Shown here one piece after another: positions 383-30,542 of a DNA stretch of 64,000 nt. Under the pieces are notes generated by a model that saw nothing but the letters and a program-made list of their open reading frames with translations, was not told the origin of the DNA and ran no database searches. This stretch comes from an uncultured Actinomycetota bacterium. GTDB lineage: Bacteria > Actinomycetota > Acidimicrobiia > Spongiisociales > UBA5794. Position 1 is the first letter of the stretch. Each line of letters starts with the position of its first letter. The DNA is taken from NCBI GenBank assembly GCA_963700375.1, contig CAVOXF010000006.1, positions 348,021-412,020 of the forward strand, written 5' to 3'. The translations under genes and the position numbers were made by a program.

Positions 383-3300
383 CTACTCGACAGGCCACAT
401 CGTCCCGAGGAACTCGAGCAGCGCCCTCGCCACATCCTTCCTCGGGGCGGGGATGAACAGTGTCGATCCCCGAAGGACCGCACCCCGGGCGATGCGGTCC
501 AGACGGACCTCCTGTGACGGCCGCAGGTCGACCTTCGACATGCGAACCTCGTTGCGGACCTGGACGATCTCGTCAAGTCCGACACGGATGGCATCGACGC
601 GAAGCCTGGCCACGGTGATGAGTTCTTCCGCTTCCGGGGGCAGGAGCCCATAGCGGTCCTCCCACTCCACGACCACATCGTCCACCTCATCATCGGTCGT
701 AGCGGCAGCCAGCCGGCGGTAGCCCTCGAGACGGCCGTCGGCGTCGGACACGTACTCGTCGGGGAGTCGCGCCTCGATCGGAAGGTCGATCCGGATGTCG
801 TGCTCGACCTTCTGCTCGATCGGCTCTCCCTTCAACTCCTGAACCGCCTCGGCGACCAGTTCGGTGTAGAGGTCGAACCCGACCGCCGCGATGTGTCCGG
901 ACTGCGTCTCGGACAGGATGCTGCCTGCTCCGCGGATCTCCAGATCTCGCATCGCGAGTTCGAACCCGGATCCAAGGTCGGAGAACTCACCGATGGCCTC
1001 GAGCCGCCGGAACGCACTCTCCCCGATCCGCTCCTCCGGGGGGTGGAACAGGTAGGCATAAGCCCGTTGGCTCGACCGCCCGACCCTTCCCCGCAATTGG
1101 TAGAGCTGGGCCAACCCGAGCCGGTCGGCCCGTTCGACGATGAGCGTGTTCACCTGTGGCAGATCCAGACCGGACTCGATGATCGTGGTGGCGACCAGCA
1201 CGTCGTAGTCGCCGTTCCAGAAGTCGTACATGACCTGTTCGAGTTGCCCTTCGTTCATCTGCCCGTGAGCAATGGCGTACCGGGCGTCCGGGACGAGATC
1301 TCGCAGACGCGTCACGGCGTGGTCAATCGACTGGACGCGGTTGTGGACGTAGAAGACCTGGCCCTCGCGCAGGATCTCCCGACGAATCGCCGCTGAGACC
1401 GCCTGGTCGTCGTACGGACCGACATAGGTGAGGATCGGGTGCCGGTCCTCGGGGGCGGTCCGAATATGGCTGACTTCACGAATCCCGGTCAGCGCCATCT
1501 CGAGGGTTCTCGGGATCGGCGTGGCGGTGAGCGTGAGCGCATCGACGGATGACCGGATCGCCTTGATTCGATCCTTGGCTGCAACACCGAACCGCTGTTC
1601 CTCATCGATCACCAGCAGTCCGAGGTCACGGAAGTCGACGTCGGCCGACAGCAGCCGGTGGGTACCAACGACGATGTCGACAGAACCATCGGCAATCCCG
1701 GCAATTACCTTGCGCTGCTGGGCCGAAGTGAGGAAGCGGCTCAGCATCTCGACCCTGACTGGGAACGGGGCGAACCGCTCTTCCATCGTCGCGAAGTGCT
1801 GCTGGGCGAGGAGCGTCGTCGGAACCAGGAGGGCTGCTTGTTTGCCATCCTGCACTGCCTTGAACATGGCGCGGAGCGCCACCTCGGTCTTCCCGTACCC
1901 GACATCGCCGAAGATCAGACGATCCATCGGGGCTTCGGCCTCCATGTCGGTCTTGACGTCGGCGATCGCCGTCAGCTGGTCCGGCGTCTCTTCGTACGGG
2001 AATGCCGCCTCGAACTCCTGCTGCCACGGCGTGTCCGGTTCGAAACCGTGACCTGCCGTCCCCGCCCTCAGGCGATGCAGGTTCACCACGGCTTCGGCAA
2101 CGACCGCAACCGCCTTCCTGACCTTGGTGCGGGTCTGGGACCAGTCTGCGCCCCCCATGCGAGAAAGGCGTGGCTTCTCACCTCCGGTGTACCGGCGTAC
2201 GGCCGCGAGCTGATCGGTCGGGACATAGATCCTGTCACCGGCCGCGTACTCGACGAGCAAGTAGTCGCGAGCCGCCCCTGCCATGTCGCGATGTACCAGA
2301 CCCTCGAACCGGCCAACGCCGTGATGATGGTGAACGACGTAGTCGCCGGGGTTCAGATCCCGGTACGCCTCGTCATGGCGCTCGCCTCTTCCCTTGCGTA
2401 CCGTCCGGTGCGAGCGGCGGCGTCCTGCCACCTCCCGCTCACCGACGACCGCCACACCAAGCGCGGGGAAGACGAACCCGTTGTGGATGCCGGTTGGGAG
2501 CACCGCCGACCCGACGGTCTCCAGCGTGTCGACGACCGGGAGGCCGGCACCGGACTCAGCGAGAAGACCCGCAACCCGCTTCGCTGCGCTCATTCCGTCC
2601 ATGGCAACGATCACATCCACGTCGCGCACGCGTCCATCCGGTGATCGTCGTCGCCACGGATTCGGGATCGCCTGCGATGGCACCGAACCCACGCATCTCG
2701 AAGCCGACGTCGCCCGGCGACGCCGCCATCGGCGGCGCCTCGAGGACATCGATCCCCTCAGCGGGTTCGAGCGGTAGGTAGAGCGGCGGGTGTGCTCCGG
2801 CGTCTGGGCCGTCCTTGCCCCACGTCCCGGACAGGACGCCGGCAAGATCGGCTTCCTCGCCGATCAGTTCGCGGCATCGATCCTTCGCCCGTTCGGGGTC
2901 GAACAGCACCACGATCGCGGCGGTCTCGTCGAGCATCGTCTTCGGCGGCGACAGCCACGGCAGCCAGGACTCGATCCCGGGGAACCGGATGCCCTCGGCA
3001 ATCCGCTCCCACGTTGATGAACCCCACGGCGCGTCGACGATCAGGTCGGCGGCGCGGCGGCGCATGCCATCCGAGATCAGAACCTCACCTGCCGGGAACA
3101 CATCGATCTCGTCGAGGGAACCCTCCGACCGCTGGGTCGAGATCACGAACGGCCGCATCTCTTCGATCGTATCGCCCCAGAAGTCGATTCGAACCGGGAG
3201 CGACGCCTGGATTGGGAAGACGTCGATGATGCCGCCTCGAACCGCGAACTCACCCCTCCCCTCGACCCGCTCCGTGCGGCGGTACCCGACGTGGGCAATT

Positions 3301-3800
3301 CGGGCGACGAGGTCGTCGAACGGCACGTCGGTCCCCGTTGTCAGGCGAATGGGGTCGACGGGGGTCGAGCTGAGTCGTTGTGTCGCAGCCCGGACGGATG
3401 CGACGACGATAGCCGGTTCCCGGCTCGCGAGGGCATGACGGGCCACAATGCGATCGGCCATCGTCGAGATGCTCGGAGACACGTGCTCGAACGGCAGCGT
3501 CTCCCACGCCGGGAGATGGAATCCGTCGCAGGTGAAGAGCGCCAGATCCTCGGCAAGGTCCTCCGCCTCCCGTTCGCCCGGGACCACGGCGAGGATGCTG
3601 CGTCCGGTGCGTTCGGCGATTCCGGCGAGCACGACAGCCCGCAGCGCGGATGCCACGACGTAGCGTCCGGGGATCGGCGGAAGCTGGTCACGCCCGAAGC
3701 GTTCGAGTACGGAGGTAAGCGGAGCGACCACGAAGAGAGAGCGTACCGATCGGACCGGCCAACGCGTCAGCGCTCGATGAATCCCTCGCTCGCGAGCCAC
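383..3800 (-). CDS. mfd: Transcription-repair coupling factor Mfd, reading frame broken by an apparent single-base frameshift near 2610-2660
   Basis: The 414-aa ORF (2556..3800) carries the UvrB-like D1/D2 N-terminal domains. The 820-aa ORF (383..2845) carries D3/D4 (GDYVVHxxHGVGRF) and the superfamily-2 translocase motifs (GYGKTEVA, LLVIDEEQRFG, helicase C). The two frames differ by +1 and together total about 1139 aa, the normal Mfd length. The true start may be an internal GTG near 3740. Confidence 0.85.
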
Positions 3801-20581: not shown

Positions 20582-21721
20582 CTATGACGGGGGCGGTTGC
20601 AGATTGCGGGTCTCGGTCGGCACCTCGCCGGCAAACTCGACCTGAGGGAAGTAGCAGGCGACCGGATGGCCTTGGCCCCGATCCTCGAGTGCCGGGATGT
20701 CACCGGCGCACACGTCCTGCGCCTTCCAGCAGCGGGTGCGGAACCGACACCCCGACGGCGGATTTGCCGGACTCGGCACATCACCCTCGAGGACGATTCG
20801 CTTGCGGTCGGCGCGCCCTGCCGGATCCGGAACGGGCACAGCCGAGAGCAGCGCCTGTGTATACGGATGTGCCGTGTTGTCGTAGACCCCGTACTCATCG
20901 CCATGCTCGACGATCTTGCCGAGGTACATCACGGCAATCCGATCGCAGAGGTGACGCACCACCGAGAGGTCGTGGGCGATGAACAGATAGGCGATGCCAA
21001 ATTCGTCCTGGATGTCCTCGAGCAGGTTCACGACCTGAGCCTGGACCGACACGTCAAGCGCCGAGACCGGCTCGTCGGCGATGATGATGCTGGGATCCAC
21101 GGCAAGTGCCCGGGCGACTCCGACGCGCTGCCGCTGTCCGCCGGAGAACTGGTGCGGGTAGCGGTTGATGTGGTTCGGATTGAGGCCGACCACCTCGAGG
21201 AGTTCCTGCGTCCTCTTCCGCCGGTCCTTCTTCGGCGTGGTCCCGTGCACACCCCACGGCTCGGAAATGATGTTACCGACCGTCATGCGGGGGTTGAGCG
21301 AGGCGTACGGATCCTGGAAGATCACCGAGATCTCCTTGCGGAGGTCCCTGAGCTGCCGCTTGTTCATCGAGAAGATGTCCTGGCCCTGATAGTAGGCAGC
21401 GCCATCCGTTGGCTCTTCAAGACGCAGGATCGTGCGCGCCGTCGTCGTCTTGCCACAGCCCGACTCGCCGACCAGGCCGAGGGTCTCGCTGGGGTGGAGG
21501 TCAAACGACACGCCGTCAACAGCCTTGACGTCGCCGATCTTCTTCTTGAAGAGGATCCCCTGGGTGATCGGGAAGTACTTGACGAGACCTTCGACTCGAA
21601 GGATCGGATCCTTCGATGCAGCACCCTTCTTCGTCACGGTCCCATGCTCCACGAGAGCAGCGGCAGCCTCGTGCGGCGAGACGGGCCAATCTTGAGGCTC
21701 CGGCGCGTCATCAGCGGTCAC
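20582..21721 (-). CDS. ABC transporter ATP-binding protein (OppF/DppF-like, with oligopeptide C-terminal domain)
   Basis: It has a Walker A motif GESGCGKTT, an ABC signature, a Walker B motif and a C-terminal oligo_HPY-type region. Confidence 0.85.
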   Translation of the reverse strand: MTADDAPEPQDWPVSPHEAAAALVEHGTVTKKGAASKDPILRVEGLVKYFPITQGILFKKKIGDVKAVDGVSFDLHPSETLGLVGESGCGKTTTARTILRLEEPTDGAAYYQGQDIFSMNKRQLRDLRKEISVIFQDPYASLNPRMTVGNIISEPWGVHGTTPKKDRRKRTQELLEVVGLNPNHINRYPHQFSGGQRQRVGVARALAVDPSIIIADEPVSALDVSVQAQVVNLLEDIQDEFGIAYLFIAHDLSVVRHLCDRIAVMYLGKIVEHGDEYGVYDNTAHPYTQALLSAVPVPDPAGRADRKRIVLEGDVPSPANPPSGCRFRTRCWKAQDVCAGDIPALEDRGQGHPVACYFPQVEFAGEVPTETRNLQPPPS

Positions 21722-22760
21722 GCTGCACCTCCTCCCAGTAGAAGCAAGAACTCTGGTGTCCGTCTCGGCCGATGCTCACCGGTTTGATCTCGTTCTGCGA
21801 ACACCGCGGCTGGACGAACGGGCACCTCGGATGGAACGGACAACCGGACGGGATGTTCAGAAGATCCGGCGGAGCACCCTGAATCGGCAAGAGCCGTTCG
21901 GTATGCATGTCGGTGCGCGGGATCGAGTCCATGAGGCCGAGCGTGTACGGATGGGCCGGATGGTGATACACGTCGTTGATCTCGCCGTCTTCCATGATCT
22001 CACCGGCATACATCACGACGACCCGGTCACAGACTTCGGCCACCACACCGAGGTCGTGGGTGATGAGGATCAGGCCCATGCCGGTGTCCTGCTGGAGATC
22101 GGCCAGGAGTTCCATGATCTGCGCCTGGACGGTGACATCGAGCGCGGTCGTCGGCTCGTCCGCGATCAACACATCGGGATCGAGCGATAGCGCCATCGCA
22201 ATCATCGCGCGTTGGCGCATGCCCCCGGAGAACTCGTGCGGGTAGGCGTTGACGCGCTGGCGAGCGTCGGGGATCCTGACCCGTTCCATCAGGTCGATGG
22301 CCTGCTCCTTCGCCTCCTTCTTGGAGAGGCCGCGGTGCTTGCGGAGCATCTCACCGATCTGCCACCCCACCGTGAAGACCGGATTCAGCGCCGTGAGCGC
22401 ATCCTGGAAGATCATCGCGATCTTCTGTCCGCGCACCTGCTTGGCCATGACGTTTTCGGGCAGTTGCAGCAGATCGACACCCCGGAACTTGACGCTCCCC
22501 TGCGTCACGAAGCCCGGGGGCGTGTCGAGGATCCCCATCACGGCCTGGGCGCTCACGCTCTTGCCGCTGCCGGACTCGCCGAGAATGGCGAGCGTCTCGT
22601 GTTCGTCGAGCGCGTACGTCAGCCCGTTCACAGCCTTGACGATCCCGTCCTCGATCCGGAATTCGACATGGAGATTGTCGACCTCCAGCAAGTGGGCATT
22701 CGGGTCGAATGGCTCGTCGCCGAGTTTGTTGTTCGTCGGTTCGATCGTGGTTGCCATCAC
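21711..22760 (-). CDS. ABC transporter ATP-binding protein (OppD/DppD-like)
   Basis: It has a Walker A motif GESGSGKS, an LSGGMRQR signature and an oligopeptide-type C-terminus. Confidence 0.85.
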
Positions 22761-23767
22761 CGAAGCTTCGGGTCGAGGGCATCGCGGAGTGCGTCACCCA
22801 TGAGAATGAACGAGAACACGGTGATGCTGAGGAAGGCACCGGGGAAGAGAAGTAGGTACGGCGACGTGAGGATGCGAGCCTGGGCGCCGCTGATCATCAA
22901 CCCCCACGAGATCGCCGGAAGCTGCAGCCCGACGCCAAGGAATGACAGCGCCGCCTCCGCAGAGATGACCGCACCGACGGTGATCGTGGCATACACGATG
23001 ACCGGTGCGAGCGAGTTCGGGAGGACGTGCTTCGTGATGATGTGGAGATTGCTCCCACCCATGGAGCGCGCGGCATCCACGTAGTCGGCGGATTTCGCGG
23101 CGATCACGGAGGACCGGACCAGGCGGAGCATGGTGGCCCATCCGAGGATGATGAGGACCAGGCTCACCTGAGCGACACCGCGTGTCGGGAACAGGCTCAA
23201 GATCACGATGCCGCCCAGGATGAACGGGATCACGAACATGATGTCCGTCAACCTGGCGATGATCGTGTCGGTCATGCCTCCGTAGTACCCGGCGGCCGAC
23301 CCGCCGATGAGGGCAATGAGGGTCGCAAAGAAGGTGACGACCAGCCCGATCGTGATCGAGACCCTGGCTCCGTAGATGGTTCGTGCGTAGTAGTCGCATC
23401 CTTGAATGTCGGTACCGAACCAATGCTCGCTGCTCGGAGGGAGCAGCGACTCGGAGAGGCTGCAGGCCCGTGGGTCGATCCTGGTGAACAGGATCGGGAA
23501 CAGCGCCATGACGACCATGATGATGATGAGGCCTGCCGATATCATGAAGATCGGCTTGCGGCGGAGTTGGCGCCAGGCGTCGCTCCAGAGGCTCGCGGTG
23601 CGGGCCTTCTCCTGATTCCCTTCTTCGATCCCAAGGACCGACTCGGTCGGGATTCTGGCTCCCATCGAGAACCGGGAACGGTCCTCCTTCTCGACCTGTG
23701 CCTCCAACGAGGCGGCGTCCTTCGAATGATCGCCGCCCTGCCGTGGGTAGCGCGGATTGTCAGTCAT
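22757..23767 (-). CDS. ABC transporter permease (OppC/DppC-like, BPD_transp_1)
   Basis: It is a multi-TM permease with an EAA-like loop. The start is placed at the ATG at 23767, which gives an ATGACTGA overlap with the upstream permease stop. Confidence 0.8.
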   Translation of the reverse strand: MTDNPRYPRQGGDHSKDAASLEAQVEKEDRSRFSMGARIPTESVLGIEEGNQEKARTASLWSDAWRQLRRKPIFMISAGLIIIMVVMALFPILFTRIDPRACSLSESLLPPSSEHWFGTDIQGCDYYARTIYGARVSITIGLVVTFFATLIALIGGSAAGYYGGMTDTIIARLTDIMFVIPFILGGIVILSLFPTRGVAQVSLVLIILGWATMLRLVRSSVIAAKSADYVDAARSMGGSNLHIITKHVLPNSLAPVIVYATITVGAVISAEAALSFLGVGLQLPAISWGLMISGAQARILTSPYLLLFPGAFLSITVFSFILMGDALRDALDPKLR

Positions 23768-24683
23768 AGCGAATCCGGGGGTCGAGGATGCCGTAGAGGA
23801 GATCGGCAACCAGGTTGGCAAACATGTAGACGACGATCATGAAGGTGGCGATGCCGACCACCACCGTTCCCTCTTGCCGCTGGACACCCTCATAGACCGC
23901 ACGACCGATGCCCGGAAGATTGAAGATGGTTTCCGTGATGATGGCACCGCCCATGAGGGCGCCGAGGTCGATAGCGAGGAAGGTCACGACCGGGATCATC
24001 GAGTTCCGGAGGGCGTGGATCCCCACCACCCGGCGACGGGACAATCCCTTCGAAGTCGCCGTCCGCACGTAGTCGGCCCGCAGGTTCTCGACGAGGCTCG
24101 TCCGCTGGAGCCGGGCAATGTAGGCGAGCGAAAGCGAGCCGAGGACCATCGCCGGCAGGAGGTAGCTGAACCAGCCGTCCCTGACACCCGACACCGGGAA
24201 CCATCCGAGCTTCACGCCAAACACAATCTGGGCGAGGAATGCCAATACGAAGATCGGGATCGCGATGACGACCAGCGTCGAAACCAAGACGAGGTTGTCG
24301 AAGAATTTCCCCTTCCTCACCCCGGCAAGGATCCCGGCGCCGATGCCGATCACCACCTCGAACGCGAAGGCGAGCAACGCGAGGCGAATCGTGACGGGAA
24401 GCCGTTGCTTCAGGAGTTCCGTCACCGGCCGATCGCGAAAGTCGACCCCGAAGTCACCCTGAGCCACATTGGTGATGTAGATCGTGTACTGCTTCCACAG
24501 CGGCTCGTCGAGGTGGTATCGCTCGTTGAGCGTGTCCAGAACCGTCTGGGGCATCACCTTCTCCCCGGCGAGCGCCCGGATCGGATCACCGGGGATCGCG
24601 AACACCAGGGCAAAGATCAAGAATGTGGCACCAAAGAACACGGGGATGAACTGAAGCATCCTACGTGCAATGTATCGGCCCAC
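23760..24683 (-). CDS. ABC transporter permease (OppB/DppB-like)
   Basis: Its N-terminus is VGRYIARRMLQFIPV. A GTG start at 24683 is preceded by GGGAGG. Confidence 0.8.
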   Translation of the reverse strand: MGRYIARRMLQFIPVFFGATFLIFALVFAIPGDPIRALAGEKVMPQTVLDTLNERYHLDEPLWKQYTIYITNVAQGDFGVDFRDRPVTELLKQRLPVTIRLALLAFAFEVVIGIGAGILAGVRKGKFFDNLVLVSTLVVIAIPIFVLAFLAQIVFGVKLGWFPVSGVRDGWFSYLLPAMVLGSLSLAYIARLQRTSLVENLRADYVRTATSKGLSRRRVVGIHALRNSMIPVVTFLAIDLGALMGGAIITETIFNLPGIGRAVYEGVQRQEGTVVVGIATFMIVVYMFANLVADLLYGILDPRIRYD

Positions 24684-24827
24684 GTGTCCTCCCGTTGTCG
24701 TCGGGCACTCTAGTTGATCTGGCACGCACTGTTCGCCAACCGTCCGAGACACAGTTGTGGGGCGGTCGATTGACCGCCCCACAACGTTTCAGGCTTCTTC
24801 CCTGGGACTAACCCTCAAAGTCGGGGT

Positions 24828-26538
24828 TCATTCAGGGTTCATCTCGGCATAGCCGACGATGTTGGAATAGAAGCTGTTGTTCTGCTGACCGTTTGCACCA
24901 TCAGCGCCGAAGCTCCAGGTGCGAACATAATCGGCTGCCGTGATCGGCGTCCCGTCGTGGAAGGTCCACCCGGGGTTCAGAGCAATCGTCCAGGTCTTGC
25001 CACCGTCCTCAGACGTTACCGCCTGCCGCGTGGACCAGGTACTGCTCGTTCGTCTTCGCATTGAAGTTGACGAGCGGTGCGTAGATCGCCCGCAGGACCG
25101 AGATGCCCTCGGACTCGTTGGAGTTCGTGGGGAACAGGTGCTCCGGTTCACTGACGTCCTGTGTGACGTTCCCGTCGATCGACTCGATCAGGGTGTAGCC
25201 GAGATCGTTGTAGGCGTCGATCCACACTTCGCTCACGTCCTCCGACCATACGTACTGGGTCTTGCCGAAGTAGACCGGCATGACCTGCGCGTCCTCACAA
25301 AGCATGTCCTCTGCCGCCCAGTAGTCGGCGAGGCCGTCTTCGAGGAGACCGCTGGCTGCGACCTTCTGAACGCCTGCTGCCAGGGCTGCATCGAAGTCGG
25401 GGTTGTTGTAGAACGTGTTGTTCGAACCGACCGGAGGAGCGTTGTACGAGGCGTACAGCGGCTCGAGGAAGTTGTACGGAGACGGATAGTCCTGGCCCCA
25501 CCCGAGGCGGAACGGACCGGTCGCTTCCTGGTTGTCCAACTTCGGAAGGTACTCGGAGAACTCGAGGGTCTCGAACGTGACGGTGCTCGTGTCGATGCCG
25601 AGGTACTCACCCCACATGTTCACGACCGCCTCGATCCAATCCTCGTGACCGGCACCGCTGTTGAACCAGACGGTGATCGGACCCGGGTCGCCTGCGGCGT
25701 CCCAGAGTTCCTTCGCCATCACCGGATCGAAGTTCCAGCTCGGGCAGACATCCGCACGGCCCTGCAGGTTCGGAGGAACCACTGAGTGCGCGGCGTCACG
25801 GCCACCGAGGAAGATCTTCTCCGCGATCGCCTCGCGGTCGACGGCCATCGAGAGCGCCTGACGGTGCTCCTTGGTGAACTGCGGCAGGTACGTCGGGAAC
25901 CCGAGATACGCGAAGCTCGTCGTGTAGACGTCGTTGTTGCGATCCGGGAAGTCCGTCTGATAGGTCGACAGGTTCTCGGTCGGGACGCTCGCCATCACGT
26001 CGAGGTTGCCGGCCAGCGCCTCGTTGTACGCGGTGGCTATCTCAGCGATGATCTCGAAGTCGAACGTGTCGATCTTCGCGGGATCCGGACCCTGGTAGTC
26101 CGCGTACTTCTCCAGCGAGATGCGCACGTCGTGCTCCCACGGAGCGGCCATCTTGAACGGACCGCTACCTACCGGCATCTCCTCGAAGGCGGCGGGATCT
26201 TCGAATGCCTGCGGGGGCATCGCGAAGTACGCCGCGTACGCCAGACGGAGTGGGAACTCCGGGTCTGCCGCTTCGAGCTCCACCGTGAAGGTGTTGTCAT
26301 CGACGACGGCCATACCTGCCAGCTGGCCCTCCATGGGCTCCGGCGGCGTGGTGTCGTCGGTGGGTGCTGTTGTCGTTGTGTCCGCGGCGGCCGGAGCCGT
26401 CGTGGTTGTCTCTGCGGCGGCCGGAGCCGTCGTGGTTGTCGAATCTGACGTATCGTCCGAATCCCCGCACGCTGCTGCTACAAGAGCAAGAACAGCGAGC
26501 AGGAGAACAAAGCGCCATAGCGATTTCTGTGATCGCAT
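24828..26538 (-). CDS. Family-5 (Opp/Dpp-type) ABC substrate-binding lipoprotein, apparently circularly permuted and frameshifted near 25010-25030
   Basis: It has a signal peptide plus lipobox (LVAAAC) and a T/A-rich linker. Canonical mid and C-terminal regions follow (VVDDNTFTVEL...PVGSGPFK...GWGQDYPSPYNFLEPLY...MPVYF). The canonical N-terminal segment comes last: LRAIYAPLVNFNAKTNEQYLVHAA, then a -1 frame change, then SEDGGKTWTIALNPGWTFHDGTPITAADYV. Confidence 0.7.
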
Positions 26539-26850
26539 GCCTTTCGCCTCCTGGTTGGTGTCGAGCTATCTCGACAATCGCGTGCCCGAGCATCGGACCG
26601 ATCGGTCAACTTGAGAGTGGATCGGCCGCTCCGTGCCCGTTGCACACGACACAATCTACACCGGTTGGCACGTCGAACGCTCCGATCTGCCCAGTTTCCC
26701 CGGTCCGCCGACGACCGCACCGCTGCCGCGCACAGCCTCCGCGGGCGGACGACCATCCGGCCTCGCCGGCAAAGAACCGGCACGCGCGGGTATTGGCCGA
26801 CCGCTGAAAGGCATTGAGGCCGCGACGATCGGCCGGTCGGCCGACACCGC

Positions 26851-27786
26851 CTACCGCTCCAGGAGAGACTCGACCTCGCCGACGGTCGGAGTCGATCGCG
26901 CCCCGGGTCTGGTGATCGTGAGTGCTGCGACCGCGTTGCCCCACCGGAGCGACTCCCCAACCGTTGAGCCACGAAGACGCGCTGCGATGAATCCGGCGTT
27001 GAACGCATCCCCCGCTCCGACACTGTCCACCATCGAGACCTCGAAGCCGGGAGCGACGACCACTTCGTCCGACGAACCGGCAACTGCTCCCTCCGGCCCG
27101 AGACGAGCGACCACGATTCGATCCTCACCAGCGAGTTCGACGGCGGCCGCGACGGGATCAGCGATTCCGGTGAGGGCTCCGACCTCGTCCGACGCGGCTC
27201 CGAGAACCACGTCCGAACATTCGACGGCCGCCTCGACGATCGCGCGGAATCCGTCGTCCCACCCCCAGTTCTCGAGCCGGAGGTTGAGATCGAACGACAC
27301 CGGGATCCCGGAAGAGTTCGCGACCGCCATAGCGTCGAGCAGCGCTTCGCGCGCCGGGGAGACCCGGAGGCAGATCCCGGACACGTGGAGCCACTCGACT
27401 CCGGAGACAGCGTTGACGGCATCGGTCGGAGCAAGGACGCTGTGGGCTCCGCCGATAGGTGGCCACACGTATATGAGTCGGTCGCCGTCCGATTGCACAA
27501 CGGCGATCACCGCGACGGTCGGAGCGTCGGTCGCGACCGACACGGTCGCCGTGTCGACTCCCGCCATTTCGAGGTCCGATACCGCGAACCGTCCAAATGA
27601 GTCGTCGCCGACGCTGCCGGCGAATCCCGTTGCGACACCGAGGCGAGCGAGCGCAGCTGCCGTGTTCGCGGCGGACCCGCCTCCGAACATACGCGGTTCT
27701 GGATTGGCGTGGGTTTCGAGTCGGTGCTCCGACGGGAGGCGGATCTCAATATCGACGTTGGCGTCACCGATCACGAGGACACTCAT
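26851..27786 (-). CDS. PfkB/ribokinase-family carbohydrate kinase
   Basis: It has N-terminal GG and MFGGGSAANTA motifs and a C-terminal VGAGDAFNAGF motif. Confidence 0.85.
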   Translation of the reverse strand: MSVLVIGDANVDIEIRLPSEHRLETHANPEPRMFGGGSAANTAAALARLGVATGFAGSVGDDSFGRFAVSDLEMAGVDTATVSVATDAPTVAVIAVVQSDGDRLIYVWPPIGGAHSVLAPTDAVNAVSGVEWLHVSGICLRVSPAREALLDAMAVANSSGIPVSFDLNLRLENWGWDDGFRAIVEAAVECSDVVLGAASDEVGALTGIADPVAAAVELAGEDRIVVARLGPEGAVAGSSDEVVVAPGFEVSMVDSVGAGDAFNAGFIAARLRGSTVGESLRWGNAVAALTITRPGARSTPTVGEVESLLER

Positions 27787-28457
27787 GTGAGAGCCTCGCT
27801 GTGAGCCGCTTCCCGGAAGCGGGCAACCAGGTCCAGGTCCTTGCTGAACCCGCCGGCCCCCGATGGCCGATTGGTGCGAGTCAATGAATCAACGCCCCAC
27901 GGTCGGACCGCGGCGATCGCTGCCGCCACGTTTTCGGGGTCGAGTCCGCCGGCGAGGATCACCGGCACGCCCACGGCTTCGACGATGGCGGCGCTCACAT
28001 CCCAGTCGTGGACAACGCCCGCTGCGCCGATGCCGGGGATATCGGGTGCGACCGAGTCGAGGATCAGATAGTCGACCACCTGTTCGTACGACCGGGCGAC
28101 GTCGACCGCCTCCGGTCCCGTCACCGCGATCGCCTGCATCACGGCGATGTCCGGCAGCGCGAGTCGCAGGTCGGCGACTGCATCAGGGCCAACCGCGCCG
28201 GACGCCCCACAGAGATGCAGGACATCGGGCTTCACCGTGCGGACCATGTGCTCGATCGCTCGCAGGTCGACCTCCACGCTGAGTGCCACCGATGTCGCAA
28301 TCCCCCCGAGCGATGCGCAGATGTCCTTCGCGAGGTCCAGAGCGATCTCGCCGGGCAGCCCGGTGGCGGCGGGGGTCACGCCCACGTGGTCGACACCGAG
28401 GCCGGCAACCGCCAGAGCCTCATCGACCGACTGCATCGTGTAGACCTGAACCCTCAC
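27783..28457 (-). CDS. Phosphoribosylanthranilate isomerase (TrpF)-like TIM-barrel protein lacking the catalytic Cys
   Basis: It has VHLCGASG and ILAGGLDPENVAAAIAAVRPWGVDS regions matching TrpF. The position of the conserved KICGiT Cys is occupied by VYTMQS. It overlaps the kinase with ATGA. Confidence 0.65.
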   Translation of the reverse strand: MRVQVYTMQSVDEALAVAGLGVDHVGVTPAATGLPGEIALDLAKDICASLGGIATSVALSVEVDLRAIEHMVRTVKPDVLHLCGASGAVGPDAVADLRLALPDIAVMQAIAVTGPEAVDVARSYEQVVDYLILDSVAPDIPGIGAAGVVHDWDVSAAIVEAVGVPVILAGGLDPENVAAAIAAVRPWGVDSLTRTNRPSGAGGFSKDLDLVARFREAAHSEALT

Positions 28458-28590
28458 GGACCCTCCATGTCTGCCCGGACGGTAGTGGAGTGTCCGAAAA
28501 TGGATGTGCCGAACGATCGGTGGAGGTTCGCGGTCGGTCGCCGGCCACCAGTCGTCAGTCGCGCGCCGCCGGGTTGGAATACGCGGTAGG

Positions 28591-28667
28591 CCTCATCTTG
28601 GTGGTTCAAGCTCCCGGAGGCCCTCCTGTCAACCGGCCTCCTCTTGGTGGTACAAGCTCCCAGGCGC
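28591..28667. promoter_or_regulatory. Two copies of a 30-nt direct repeat (26/30 identical) flanking an 11-bp palindrome GGAGGcCCTCC, in the sulfatase/TrpF-like intergenic region
   Basis: The copies are cctcAtcttggtggtTcaagctcccGgagg (28591-28620) and cctcCtcttggtggtAcaagctcccAggcg (28638-28667). A perfect 10-bp hairpin gcggattcgc-gga-gcgaatccgc lies at 28674-28696. Confidence 0.3.
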
Positions 28668-28732
28668 CCCCCTGCGGATTCGCGGAGCGAATCCGCGTCC
28701 CCCACCCTCCGGGCGGGGGGACAGGGGACCGC

Positions 28733-30142
28733 CTAGGTACCGGGGTAGGGGGCGTCGCCAACTTCTCGTTGAAGCCGGGCCAGTTCGGCCGAGAGTTCGG
28801 CCCGGATCTTCTGGTATTCCGGGTCGTCGATCACGTTGTTGACCTCGAGCGGATCTGTGACCAGGTCGTACAACTCCCACTCAATCGGATCGACAGGACC
28901 GTGGGCGCCCAGCTGTCCGAGCGGATCGTTGTAGTAGCAGATGAGCTTGTGGGTATTCGTACGCACCCCGTAGTGCGCCGGGCAGTTGTGGGCCGAATCT
29001 CGATGCATCCAGTAGCGGTAGTACATCGACTCGGGCCAGTCGTCGGGCGTGTCGCCTTCGAGGATCGGAGCGAACGATCGGCCCTGGACGTGTTCGGGGA
29101 TCTCGACCCCCATGAGGGCGAGCAGCGTTGGGCCGAAGTCGACGTTCACCACGATGTCGTCGCTGATCGAGCCAGGAGCAATCCGATTCGGGTACTGCAT
29201 GAGGAGCGGCATGCGGAGCGACTCCTCGAACATGAGCCGCTTGTCGAACCATCCGTGATCGCCGAGGAAGAACCCCTGGTCGGATGTGTAGACAACGATG
29301 GTGTTGTCGATCAGTCCGCATTCATCGAGGTGGTCCAAGAGTCGTCCGACGCTCTCATCCACAGCGGCGATGACACCGAGGTATCGCCGCATGTACCGCT
29401 GGTAGCGCCACGCGATCTCCTCGTCCTCGGTCAGTCCCTCTGGCACCACCGCGTTGAGATCGGTGATGGGGTCGAGATCCATCATGTGCATCCGCATCGC
29501 CTTGATCACGTCGGAGCGACCGTTGAGATCATCCCGCAGCGTGTAGGGCTCGGGGATATCGACGTCGTCGTACATCGTGAAATGCCGGGCCGCCGGTTCC
29601 CACGTTCGGTGTGGCGCTTTGTGGTGGCAGAAGAGCGCGAACGGCCGGTCTGCGTGGTCGTCGATGAATTCGATCGAGTCGTCGGTGATGAGGTCGGTGA
29701 CGTATCCGCCGCGCTCGACGATGCGACCGCCCTCTTCGATCATCACGGGATTGTGATAGTGCCCCTGACCGGGGAGCACCCGCCAGAAGTCGAAGCCGAC
29801 GGGATCATGGTTCGGACCGTGCCCCAGGTGCCATTTACCGATGAGGCCCGTCGCGTACCCGGCGTCCTGGAGAGCCTGAGGGAATGTCCAGAGGCTGTTG
29901 TCGAGTGGTGTATCAAGCGTCGTGACGCTATTCACGTGGTTGTACGTGCCCGTGAGGATCGCCGCACGGCTGGGCGTACAAATGCCGTTCGTGCAGAACG
30001 CCGAGTCCATGCGGATCCCGTTGTCGGCGATGCGATCGAGGTTCGGCGTCTGATTGACGCGGCTTCCATATGCCGAGATTGCGTGCGCCGCATGGTCGTC
30101 GGTCAGGATGAACAACAGGTTCGGTCGGGCGTTCATGTTCAT
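28733..30142 (-). CDS. Sulfatase (formylglycine-dependent arylsulfatase family), cytoplasmic
   Basis: It has the CTPSRAAILTG (C-x-P-x-R) signature and a GKWHLG motif. There is no signal peptide. The start is placed at MNMNARPNLLFILTDDH. Confidence 0.85.
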   Translation of the reverse strand: MNMNARPNLLFILTDDHAAHAISAYGSRVNQTPNLDRIADNGIRMDSAFCTNGICTPSRAAILTGTYNHVNSVTTLDTPLDNSLWTFPQALQDAGYATGLIGKWHLGHGPNHDPVGFDFWRVLPGQGHYHNPVMIEEGGRIVERGGYVTDLITDDSIEFIDDHADRPFALFCHHKAPHRTWEPAARHFTMYDDVDIPEPYTLRDDLNGRSDVIKAMRMHMMDLDPITDLNAVVPEGLTEDEEIAWRYQRYMRRYLGVIAAVDESVGRLLDHLDECGLIDNTIVVYTSDQGFFLGDHGWFDKRLMFEESLRMPLLMQYPNRIAPGSISDDIVVNVDFGPTLLALMGVEIPEHVQGRSFAPILEGDTPDDWPESMYYRYWMHRDSAHNCPAHYGVRTNTHKLICYYNDPLGQLGAHGPVDPIEWELYDLVTDPLEVNNVIDDPEYQKIRAELSAELARLQREVGDAPYPGT

Positions 30143-30465: not shown

Positions 30466-30542
30466 TGGTGGAGGTGAGGGGATTTGAACCCCTGACCCCT
30501 ACGTTGCGAACGTAGTGCTCTGCCGAACTGAGCTACACCCCC
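30466..30542 (-). tRNA. tRNA-Ala (anticodon CGC)
   Basis: It folds as a cloverleaf by hand with a G3:U70 identity pair. The anticodon loop is UUCGCAA and the T-loop is TTCAAAT. CCA is encoded. Confidence 0.85.

Follow-up and report, generated by a model that had tools for sequence, protein, structure and literature searches.

A sulfatase, a translationally coupled TrpF-like/PfkB cassette and a Dpp/Opp-type importer as probably independent units in an Acidimicrobiia genome

Do neighbouring, co-directional genes for a sulfatase, a TrpF-like (beta-alpha)8 protein, a PfkB-family sugar kinase and a peptide-type ABC importer make up one catabolic locus? The question is raised by a 64,000 nt stretch of DNA (the window; ca. 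64% G+C), which synteny and protein matches assign to an Acidimicrobiia genome. Eight genes follow each other on its minus strand, in the order sulfatase, TrpF-like, PfkB, substrate-binding protein (SBP), OppB, OppC, OppD and OppF. A first-pass annotation had proposed that the Opp importer takes up a sulfated or otherwise modified sugar, which is then desulfated by the sulfatase, phosphorylated by PfkB and isomerised by the TrpF-like protein. The open reading frames (ORFs) and their Pfam matches bear out the order and common direction of the eight genes that it described, as well as the ATGA overlap between the TrpF-like stop codon and the PfkB start. Its range, 24828-30142, spans the sulfatase to the SBP only, leaving OppBCDF outside, and its term "fused" was too strong, since the sulfatase and TrpF-like genes lie 275 nt apart, the PfkB and SBP genes 312 nt apart, and a hairpin starts at the sulfatase stop. 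Our comparisons argue for a different organization: we consider it probable, with good though not complete confidence, that the sulfatase, the TrpF-like/PfkB pair and the Dpp/Opp importer are units independent of each other, assembled as a mosaic on a conserved Acidimicrobiia chromosomal backbone.

Gene neighbourhoods seen from each of the three units

Scanning a single genome for each species, we retrieved 428 relatives of the TrpF-like protein; the best 80 were analyzed, and 74 of these were informative, with at least 1 kb of downstream sequence. An orthologous PfkB gene lies directly 3′ of the TrpF-like gene in 61 of the 74 informative loci, mostly overlapping it or at less than 10 nt. A sulfatase gene occurs within 5 kb of the TrpF-like gene in four of them, and the Opp operon in none. 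Clustering of the ORFs around the pair (6 kb upstream and 7 kb downstream, 87 loci) found no third conserved partner, the next most frequent cluster being generic ABC ATPases (17/87). Loci lacking PfkB have heterogeneous neighbours, except for a recurring RpiR regulator. The TrpF-like and PfkB genes are the only widely conserved pair in the region, and form a translationally coupled cassette found across phyla.

The picture from the other two sides agrees. We compared 80 metagenome loci containing relatives of the sulfatase (51-82% identity), with at least 2.5 kb of sequence downstream in 41 and upstream in 37. All 80 lack both a TrpF-like gene and an orthologous PfkB gene, a single distant PfkB being found on the opposite strand, and no neighbour of the sulfatase is conserved among them. 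Orthologous Opp operons occur in four loci of our comparison, L005, L088, L090 and L091; those of L090, by genes for 2-oxoglutarate dehydrogenase and PspA, and of L091, by glycolysis genes, have the same type of SBP and are accompanied by neither the pair nor the sulfatase. Because the modules are not co-conserved when examined from the TrpF-like, the sulfatase or the Opp side, the three units assort independently. Co-conservation was the check that the first-pass annotation itself had set for a single sulfated-sugar locus, and these counts (sulfatase in 4/74 and Opp in 0/74 TrpF-like loci; TrpF-like in 0/80 sulfatase loci) go against it.

Synteny among close Acidimicrobiia indicates how the present arrangement is organized. 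The shared backbone comprises genes for a thiamine-pyrophosphate enzyme, BacA, PlsY, MoeA, MoaC, tRNA-Ala, the TrpF-like/PfkB pair, an ion channel, an NTP-transferase and a DUF8575 protein. The tRNA-Ala(CGC) gene (30466-30542, minus strand, detected by ARAGORN and Rfam), just upstream of the sulfatase, is shared with the syntenic loci L001, L002, L005, L006 and L007 and is a fixed landmark. From this gene to the TrpF-like gene there are 2-7 kb whose genes differ in every relative (sulfatase, GNAT, HNH, CHAD, molybdoenzyme, sigma factor and others); this segment is a hot spot of gene turnover. Downstream of the pair the content is also variable, with an amidohydrolase, GSDH, Opp or nothing. Thus, L002 and L003 have a sulfatase and a GNAT gene upstream, an amidohydrolase downstream and no Opp; L006 has a sulfatase, an HNH gene and a GNAT gene upstream, an amidohydrolase fragment downstream and no Opp; L007 has CHAD and HHH genes upstream and GSDH downstream; L005 has seven unrelated genes upstream, and GSDH plus Opp downstream, the latter two being also downstream of the pair in L088; L001 has a sulfatase and a GNAT gene upstream and a different Opp operon (35% identity) downstream; and L004 has none of sulfatase, GNAT, amidohydrolase, GSDH, Opp or CHAD. 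No remnants of the relatives' GNAT, amidohydrolase or GSDH genes were found in the intergenic gaps of the window. It is only within one small Acidimicrobiia group that the three units adjoin each other.

The single catabolic locus thus has to be weighed against this patchwork. It would account for the co-directional arrangement of the genes, and the sulfatase is nearest to exo-acting 6-O-sulfatases, whose action frees the 6-hydroxyl that a 6-kinase needs. A sulfatase gene also stands beside the TrpF-like gene in the Acidimicrobiia clade (L001, L002/L003/L019 and L006/L010), in L039, where both are coupled, and in L049, with an adjacent GH97 gene. The modules are, however, not co-conserved from either the TrpF-like or the sulfatase side; close relatives carry the sulfatase, or Opp, or neither; the SBP is, by sequence, predicted to be a peptide binder of the DppA type, and its operon occurs alone elsewhere; and a strong hairpin plus the 275 nt gap follow the sulfatase. 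On balance we regard a single locus as very improbable. Discarding the proposed sulfated-sugar pathway, which would have been a new catabolic route, prevents a misleading annotation.

Several observations weigh against a mosaic of self-contained units with the pair as a complete cassette. A sulfatase adjoins the TrpF-like gene in three phyla (in Acidimicrobiia, in the Lentisphaeria locus L039, where the stop and start codons of both genes overlap, and in the Neomarinimicrobiota locus L049), a weak lead to some functional link between both proteins in those lineages. Lentisphaeria and Marinimicrobia genomes are rich in sulfatases, so chance adjacency is likely in L039 and L049. Additionally, a GNAT gene located 60 nt ahead of the TrpF-like gene in close relatives is missing from the window, whose cassette may be incomplete, and the PfkB kinase of the Rhizobiaceae cluster described below is only ca. 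31% identical to that of the window, so that the kinase step may differ by lineage.

The Q-x-Y branch of the TrpF family and its kinase partner

The TrpF-like gene (27783-28457, minus strand) encodes a (beta-alpha)8 barrel whose fold is nearest to known TrpF structures and which matches the Pfam PRAI family (PF00697) with 42.8 bits, above the gathering score. Its best score with the NCBIfam TrpF models is 85.2 bits, compared to an equivalog cut-off of ca. 216, and it falls below all the TrpF cut-offs. An exhaustive search among representative sequences retrieved relatives in 825 clusters at E ≤ 1e-10. In the family alignment, the N-terminus reads M-x-x-Q-I-Y where TrpF has V-K-I-C-G, so that Tyr stands in place of the catalytic Cys and Gln in place of the Lys. 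Tyr6, in the Cys column, is invariant across 36 members of what we designate the Q-x-Y family, and the Q-x-Y motif is present in all 85 orthologous ORFs from the 87 loci. The first-pass annotation had noticed the loss of the catalytic Cys but placed a Thr in its position; the replacement is Tyr6, within Q-V-Y, its alignment being shifted by one residue. The residues invariant in the Q-x-Y family alignment are Q4, Y6, D134, the AGGL motif, D190 and S191. Among them, D134, corresponding to the general acid of TrpF on strand beta-6, is nearly invariant once canonical TrpFs are added, while G170, G171 and L172 of the AGGL motif, together with D190, are invariant with or without these, and G188 is nearly invariant. 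By its residue pattern, then, the protein is a TrpF-fold enzyme that keeps the predicted acid, Asp134, and the phosphate site (AGGL and GVDS), with a different putative base.

With no catalytic Cys, low model scores and no tryptophan gene context, the protein seems not to be a standard TrpF, in agreement with the doubt expressed in the first-pass annotation. The argument used there, that PriA takes over the role of TrpF in actinobacteria, fails for Acidimicrobiia, since the HisA of Acidimicrobium ferrooxidans is specific for N′-[(5′-phosphoribosyl)formimino]-5-aminoimidazole-4-carboxamide ribonucleotide (ProFAR) (Noda-Garcia et al., 2015; PMC4462073). This same specificity implies that Acidimicrobiia need a separate TrpF, and so favours the possibility that the TrpF-like protein is the true phosphoribosylanthranilate isomerase of the organism, Tyr acting in the role of Cys and the coupling to PfkB being incidental. 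The closeness of its fold to TrpF, the retention of Asp134 and of the phosphate-binding motifs, and its public annotation as phosphoribosylanthranilate isomerase point in the same direction. Against this, the defining catalytic Cys is missing from the whole family and the scores lie far under every NCBIfam TrpF equivalog cut-off. No trp gene was recognized among the annotated neighbours of the 87 loci, nor among the Pfam-scanned ORFs of the window, compared to a downstream PfkB in 82% of the informative loci. Likewise, members of the same family, 58% identical, are found on Rhizobiaceae megaplasmids within RpiR-regulated sugar-transport clusters, and Rhizobiaceae carry a chromosomal trpFBA operon. 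We therefore hold a role in tryptophan synthesis to be a slim chance, and favour a member of a distinct branch of the TrpF family, dedicated to another reaction.

The Rhizobiaceae homologs occur on megaplasmids of Shinella, Ensifer and Sinorhizobium medicae, in one conserved cluster (L172, 5675-12678; L173, 3770-10678; and L174, 3768-10678; from Ensifer, Shinella and S. medicae megaplasmids). Here, a MurR/RpiR regulator gene is followed by the Q-x-Y TrpF-like gene, divergent from genes for a CUT1 SBP, two permeases, a class I/II aminotransferase and a PfkB kinase; the TrpF-like gene is annotated as phosphoribosylanthranilate isomerase, and a literature search yielded no published function for the cluster. 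In Micromonospora and in one Shinella metagenome-assembled genome (MAG), the order is RpiR, TrpF-like and then an enzyme of ca. 800 aa resembling transketolase and the E1 component of pyruvate dehydrogenase, and a Chloroflexi locus has RpiR directly upstream of the TrpF-like gene. These RpiR and sugar-transport contexts tie the TrpF-like family to phosphosugar catabolism and not to tryptophan synthesis. The thiamine-diphosphate enzyme adjoining the TrpF-like gene in Micromonospora and the Shinella MAG (ca. 800-855 aa; L085, 10552-13119, and L087, 10733-13141) has weak matches to Transketolase_N, PDH_E1_M and Transketolase_C only.

Other neighbourhoods of the family are more singular. A packed operon from a Lentisphaeria MAG (L039, 3801-14431) contains genes for a CUT2 ABC ATPase and permease, a nucleoside hydrolase, an ADP-ribosylglycohydrolase, a ribokinase-like PfkB, the TrpF-like protein and a sulfatase, the stop and start codons of these last two overlapping; its PfkB differs from the type found in the window, and there is a GH31 gene on the opposite strand. 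This operon hints at a link of the TrpF-like family with ribosyl compounds. The Neomarinimicrobiota locus L049 contains genes for GH97, a sulfatase, TrpF-like, PfkB and an EEP phosphatase. A metagenome protein of 390 aa (P0180) is a lone fusion of a TrpF-like domain to a Maf nucleotide pyrophosphatase, which may be an artefact of gene calling; being a single isolated case, it was dropped as a Rosetta stone for function.

The kinase gene (26851-27786, minus strand; ATGA overlap with the TrpF-like gene) matches PfkB (PF00294) with 185 bits, and its product contains both the N-terminal GG motif (GGGSAAN) and the GAGD catalytic motif (VGAGDAF). It reaches no substrate-specific equivalog cut-off among the NCBIfam models, the best score being that to IolC_N (170.7 vs. 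300), and it matches the fructoselysine 6-kinase model weakly (77 bits). Its best relatives in the PDB are fructokinase, aminoimidazole riboside kinase, 2-keto-3-deoxygluconate kinase and ribokinase.

The earlier suggestion that kinase and isomerase act in succession on a phosphosugar is plausible given their translational coupling. The reaction order, chemistry and class of substrate that we infer as most likely are the following. PfkB would phosphorylate a terminal hydroxyl of a sugar or of an N-glycosyl or amino-sugar derivative; the TrpF-like barrel would then hold the product by this phosphate group in the retained AGGL/GVDS site and could perform an aldose-ketose isomerisation of the Amadori type, with Asp134 as the acid and Tyr6 as the base in place of Cys. 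As a tentative and rather speculative proposal, the pair might constitute an undescribed pathway of two steps acting on N-glycosyl compounds, Amadori-type compounds or ribosyl derivatives, with kinase action preceding a TrpF-fold Amadori-type rearrangement with Tyr as the base. If true, the reverse rearrangement would release an aldose phosphate and an amine, and the pair would parallel the SIS-fold deglycases FrlB and FraB without being homologous to them.

Our literature search gave nothing relevant on the TrpF-like/PfkB pair or the Rhizobiaceae cluster. The cassette occurs in over 400 species, most of them uncultured, and on Rhizobiaceae megaplasmids; its hosts include Acidimicrobiia, Chloroflexota and Marinimicrobia, along with further abundant heterotrophs that are uncultured. 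The Q-x-Y proteins are a large, uncharacterized branch of the TrpF family that lacks the catalytic Cys and extends across phyla; they are routinely mis-annotated as tryptophan-biosynthesis enzymes, which distorts the metabolic reconstruction of MAGs. Since they are also found in culturable Ensifer, Sinorhizobium and Shinella, their function can be tested. Among these hosts are Ensifer canadensis T173, with the genes on pT173d (J3R84_RS34495-34525), and S. medicae WSM419.

Upstream of the TrpF-like gene there are two copies of a 40 nt direct repeat (28589-28628 and 28635-28674, minus strand; repeat search, 85% identity), placed 46 nt apart, at the site where relatives have the GNAT gene. The repeat has the core GGGAGCTTG(A/T)ACCACCAAGA(T/G)GAGGCC, with a short palindrome, and the 27 nt core has two matches compared to none expected. 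This repeat may be an operator.

The cytoplasmic sulfatase and the permuted substrate-binding protein

The sulfatase gene (28733-30142, minus strand) lies in a frame open to 30289, and its product matches PF00884 (174.5 bits) and SGSH_C. As the first-pass annotation had described, it has an intact C-x-P-x-R formylglycine motif (CTPSR) and is predicted to be cytoplasmic, no hydrophobic signal sequence preceding its start, MNMNARPNLLF. Its best solved relative is an N-acetylglucosamine-6-sulfatase (5g2v, E 2.5e-127), followed by a mucin-desulfating sulfatase and an exo-L-galactose-6-sulfatase. It belongs to a family of proteins of ca. 470 aa without signal peptides from Acidimicrobiia, with 70-88% identity and more than 100 clusters. 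We read it as a predicted cytoplasmic S1 sulfatase of the formylglycine type, closest by similarity to GlcNAc-6-O-sulfatases and encoded by a free-standing gene; it probably acts on a small 6-O-sulfated sugar that enters the cell by another route. No formylglycine-generating enzyme (FGE) or anaerobic sulfatase-maturating enzyme (anSME) was recognized among the Pfam-scanned ORFs in a search that covered the window only.

A double hairpin (28661-28732, minus strand; fold of 28655-28735) starts at the stop codon of the sulfatase gene, with −59.5 kcal/mol and a z-score of −4.67; none of 200 shuffled sequences folds as well. A perfect 14 bp hairpin (24754-24785, minus strand; fold of 24740-24800; −33.5 kcal/mol, z-score −5.5) follows the SBP gene. 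Neither of them has a U-tail, and they are likely terminators or attenuators; their positions also speak for the independence of the sulfatase and of Opp. With Rfam at gathering thresholds we found only two tRNAs across the window and no riboswitch in the intergenic gaps, and consensus scans were uninformative, with zero sigma-70 promoters and terminators at chance level.

The importer is complete by Pfam (SBP_bac_5, BPD_transp_1, OppC_N, ABC_tran and oligo_HPY), with two permeases, OppB (23760-24782) and OppC (22757-23821), and two ATPases, OppD (21711-22760) and OppF (20582-21721), forming with the SBP (24828-26538) a peptide-type ABC importer, all on the minus strand. The SBP is a lipoprotein of the DppA/OppA type, and its nearest solved relative is DppA from Mycobacterium tuberculosis (Rv3666c; 6E3D, 7JLS and 8WD9; E 2e-74, ca. 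35% identity), which binds tri- and tetrapeptides and for which a connection with haem uptake is reported (PMC10954201, PMC6751184). Because of this relationship we take a peptide, and not a sugar, as the default substrate of the Opp/SBP system; the sugar carrier envisaged by the first-pass annotation is not favoured.

The order of segments in the SBP is swapped with respect to DppA, residues 464-567 of the query aligning with DppA 17-118 and residues 71-441 with DppA 127-503. The N-terminal segment of DppA is found at the C-terminus in all of the 120 best homologs, mostly from Acidimicrobiia MAGs. The AlphaFold 2 (AF2) model stays confident across the segment that has moved, and Foldseek retrieves the peptide-binding proteins DppA, MppA and OppA first. 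On these alignments and the predicted structure, the protein is a naturally permuted, circularly rearranged cluster C SBP, with the first ca. 100 residues of mature DppA moved to the C-terminal end. A literature search found no report of circular permutation for DppA-type or cluster C SBPs, and the permuted protein is relevant to the folding and evolution of SBPs as well as to biosensor design. At its N-terminus (26380-26470), three TTTTAP(A/T) repeats separate the folded domain from the lipobox Cys; these repeats are the cause of a spurious weak match to the Pfam family New_glue.

The window copy of the SBP gene is frameshifted. Three-frame translation and nucleotide alignment to L088 revealed one extra base near 25025, which ends the ORF at 25009 (509 aa) and leaves the last ca. 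65 codons in another frame, to 24828. Accordingly, positions 46-366 of the SBP_bac_5 profile match the 509 aa ORF and positions 11-61 the tail ORF in the other frame. Intact orthologs (573 aa in L005, 13902-15623; L088, 3970-5685; 571 aa in P0271; more than 100 clusters) have both parts in a single frame and in the same order. Is the Opp part then dead, the SBP gene being a true pseudogene and transport lost in this strain? The insertion removes ca. 65 residues matching approximately DppA 55-118, and the public copy of the contig has the same 509 aa gene call (P0272), although looking up the gene call of the window by exact sequence retrieved no contig. However, oppBCDF and all other parts of the SBP gene are undamaged, with 85% nucleotide identity to an intact ortholog, and the terminator-like hairpin at 24754-24785 follows the full-length stop (24828), not the premature one (25009). 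Additionally, mfd is likewise split into overlapping ORFs in different frames (UvrB_inter, 2556-3800; RID/helicase/TRCF, 383-2845; overlap, 2556-2845), as would result from assembly indels. Two frameshifts within 64 kb suggest assembly indels; for the SBP gene taken by itself, an indel is just as likely as a true pseudogene, and we see loss of transport in the strain as a minority possibility, well short of even.

Relationship to characterized systems

Of the systems to which these units can be compared, that of the sulfatase is BT4656 from Bacteroides thetaiotaomicron, a GlcNAc-6-O-sulfatase (5G2V; also 7P24 and 7LHA), with which it shares full-length similarity (429 bits), the CxPxR motif and SGSH_C. 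Conversely, the window protein has no signal peptide and is predicted to be cytoplasmic instead of periplasmic, and its gene is not in a polysaccharide utilization locus and has no conserved neighbours. The importer resembles M. tuberculosis DppABCD in having a lipoprotein SBP, two permeases and two ATPases with oligo_HPY tails, although the Acidimicrobiia SBP is permuted and contains a Thr/Pro-rich linker after the lipobox.

The TrpF-like protein shares with TrpF (EC 5.3.1.24; 5LHF from T. kodakarensis, 1V5X from T. thermophilus and 1PII from E. coli) the Asp of the LILDS motif, the HDW motif, the AGGL and GVD phosphate-binding motifs and the C-terminal KD motif. It differs in having Q-x-Y for K-I-C and S-L-T-x-T for S-S-G-V-E after strand beta-8, in its identity of only 21-27%, and in that its gene is never found in a trp operon, being coupled instead to a PfkB kinase gene. 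For the cassette as a whole, the closest parallels are FrlD/FrlB and FraD/FraB from E. coli and Salmonella, which are pairs of a PfkB kinase and a deglycase for Amadori compounds. By analogy, the cassette would likewise combine adjacent genes for a PfkB kinase and for an enzyme with Amadori-type aldose/ketose chemistry on the phosphorylated product. FrlB and FraB are SIS-fold (GlmS-like) deglycases, whereas the partner in the window has the TrpF fold; the likeness, drawn from general knowledge of these pairs, thus serves as a lead to the possible role of the cassette.

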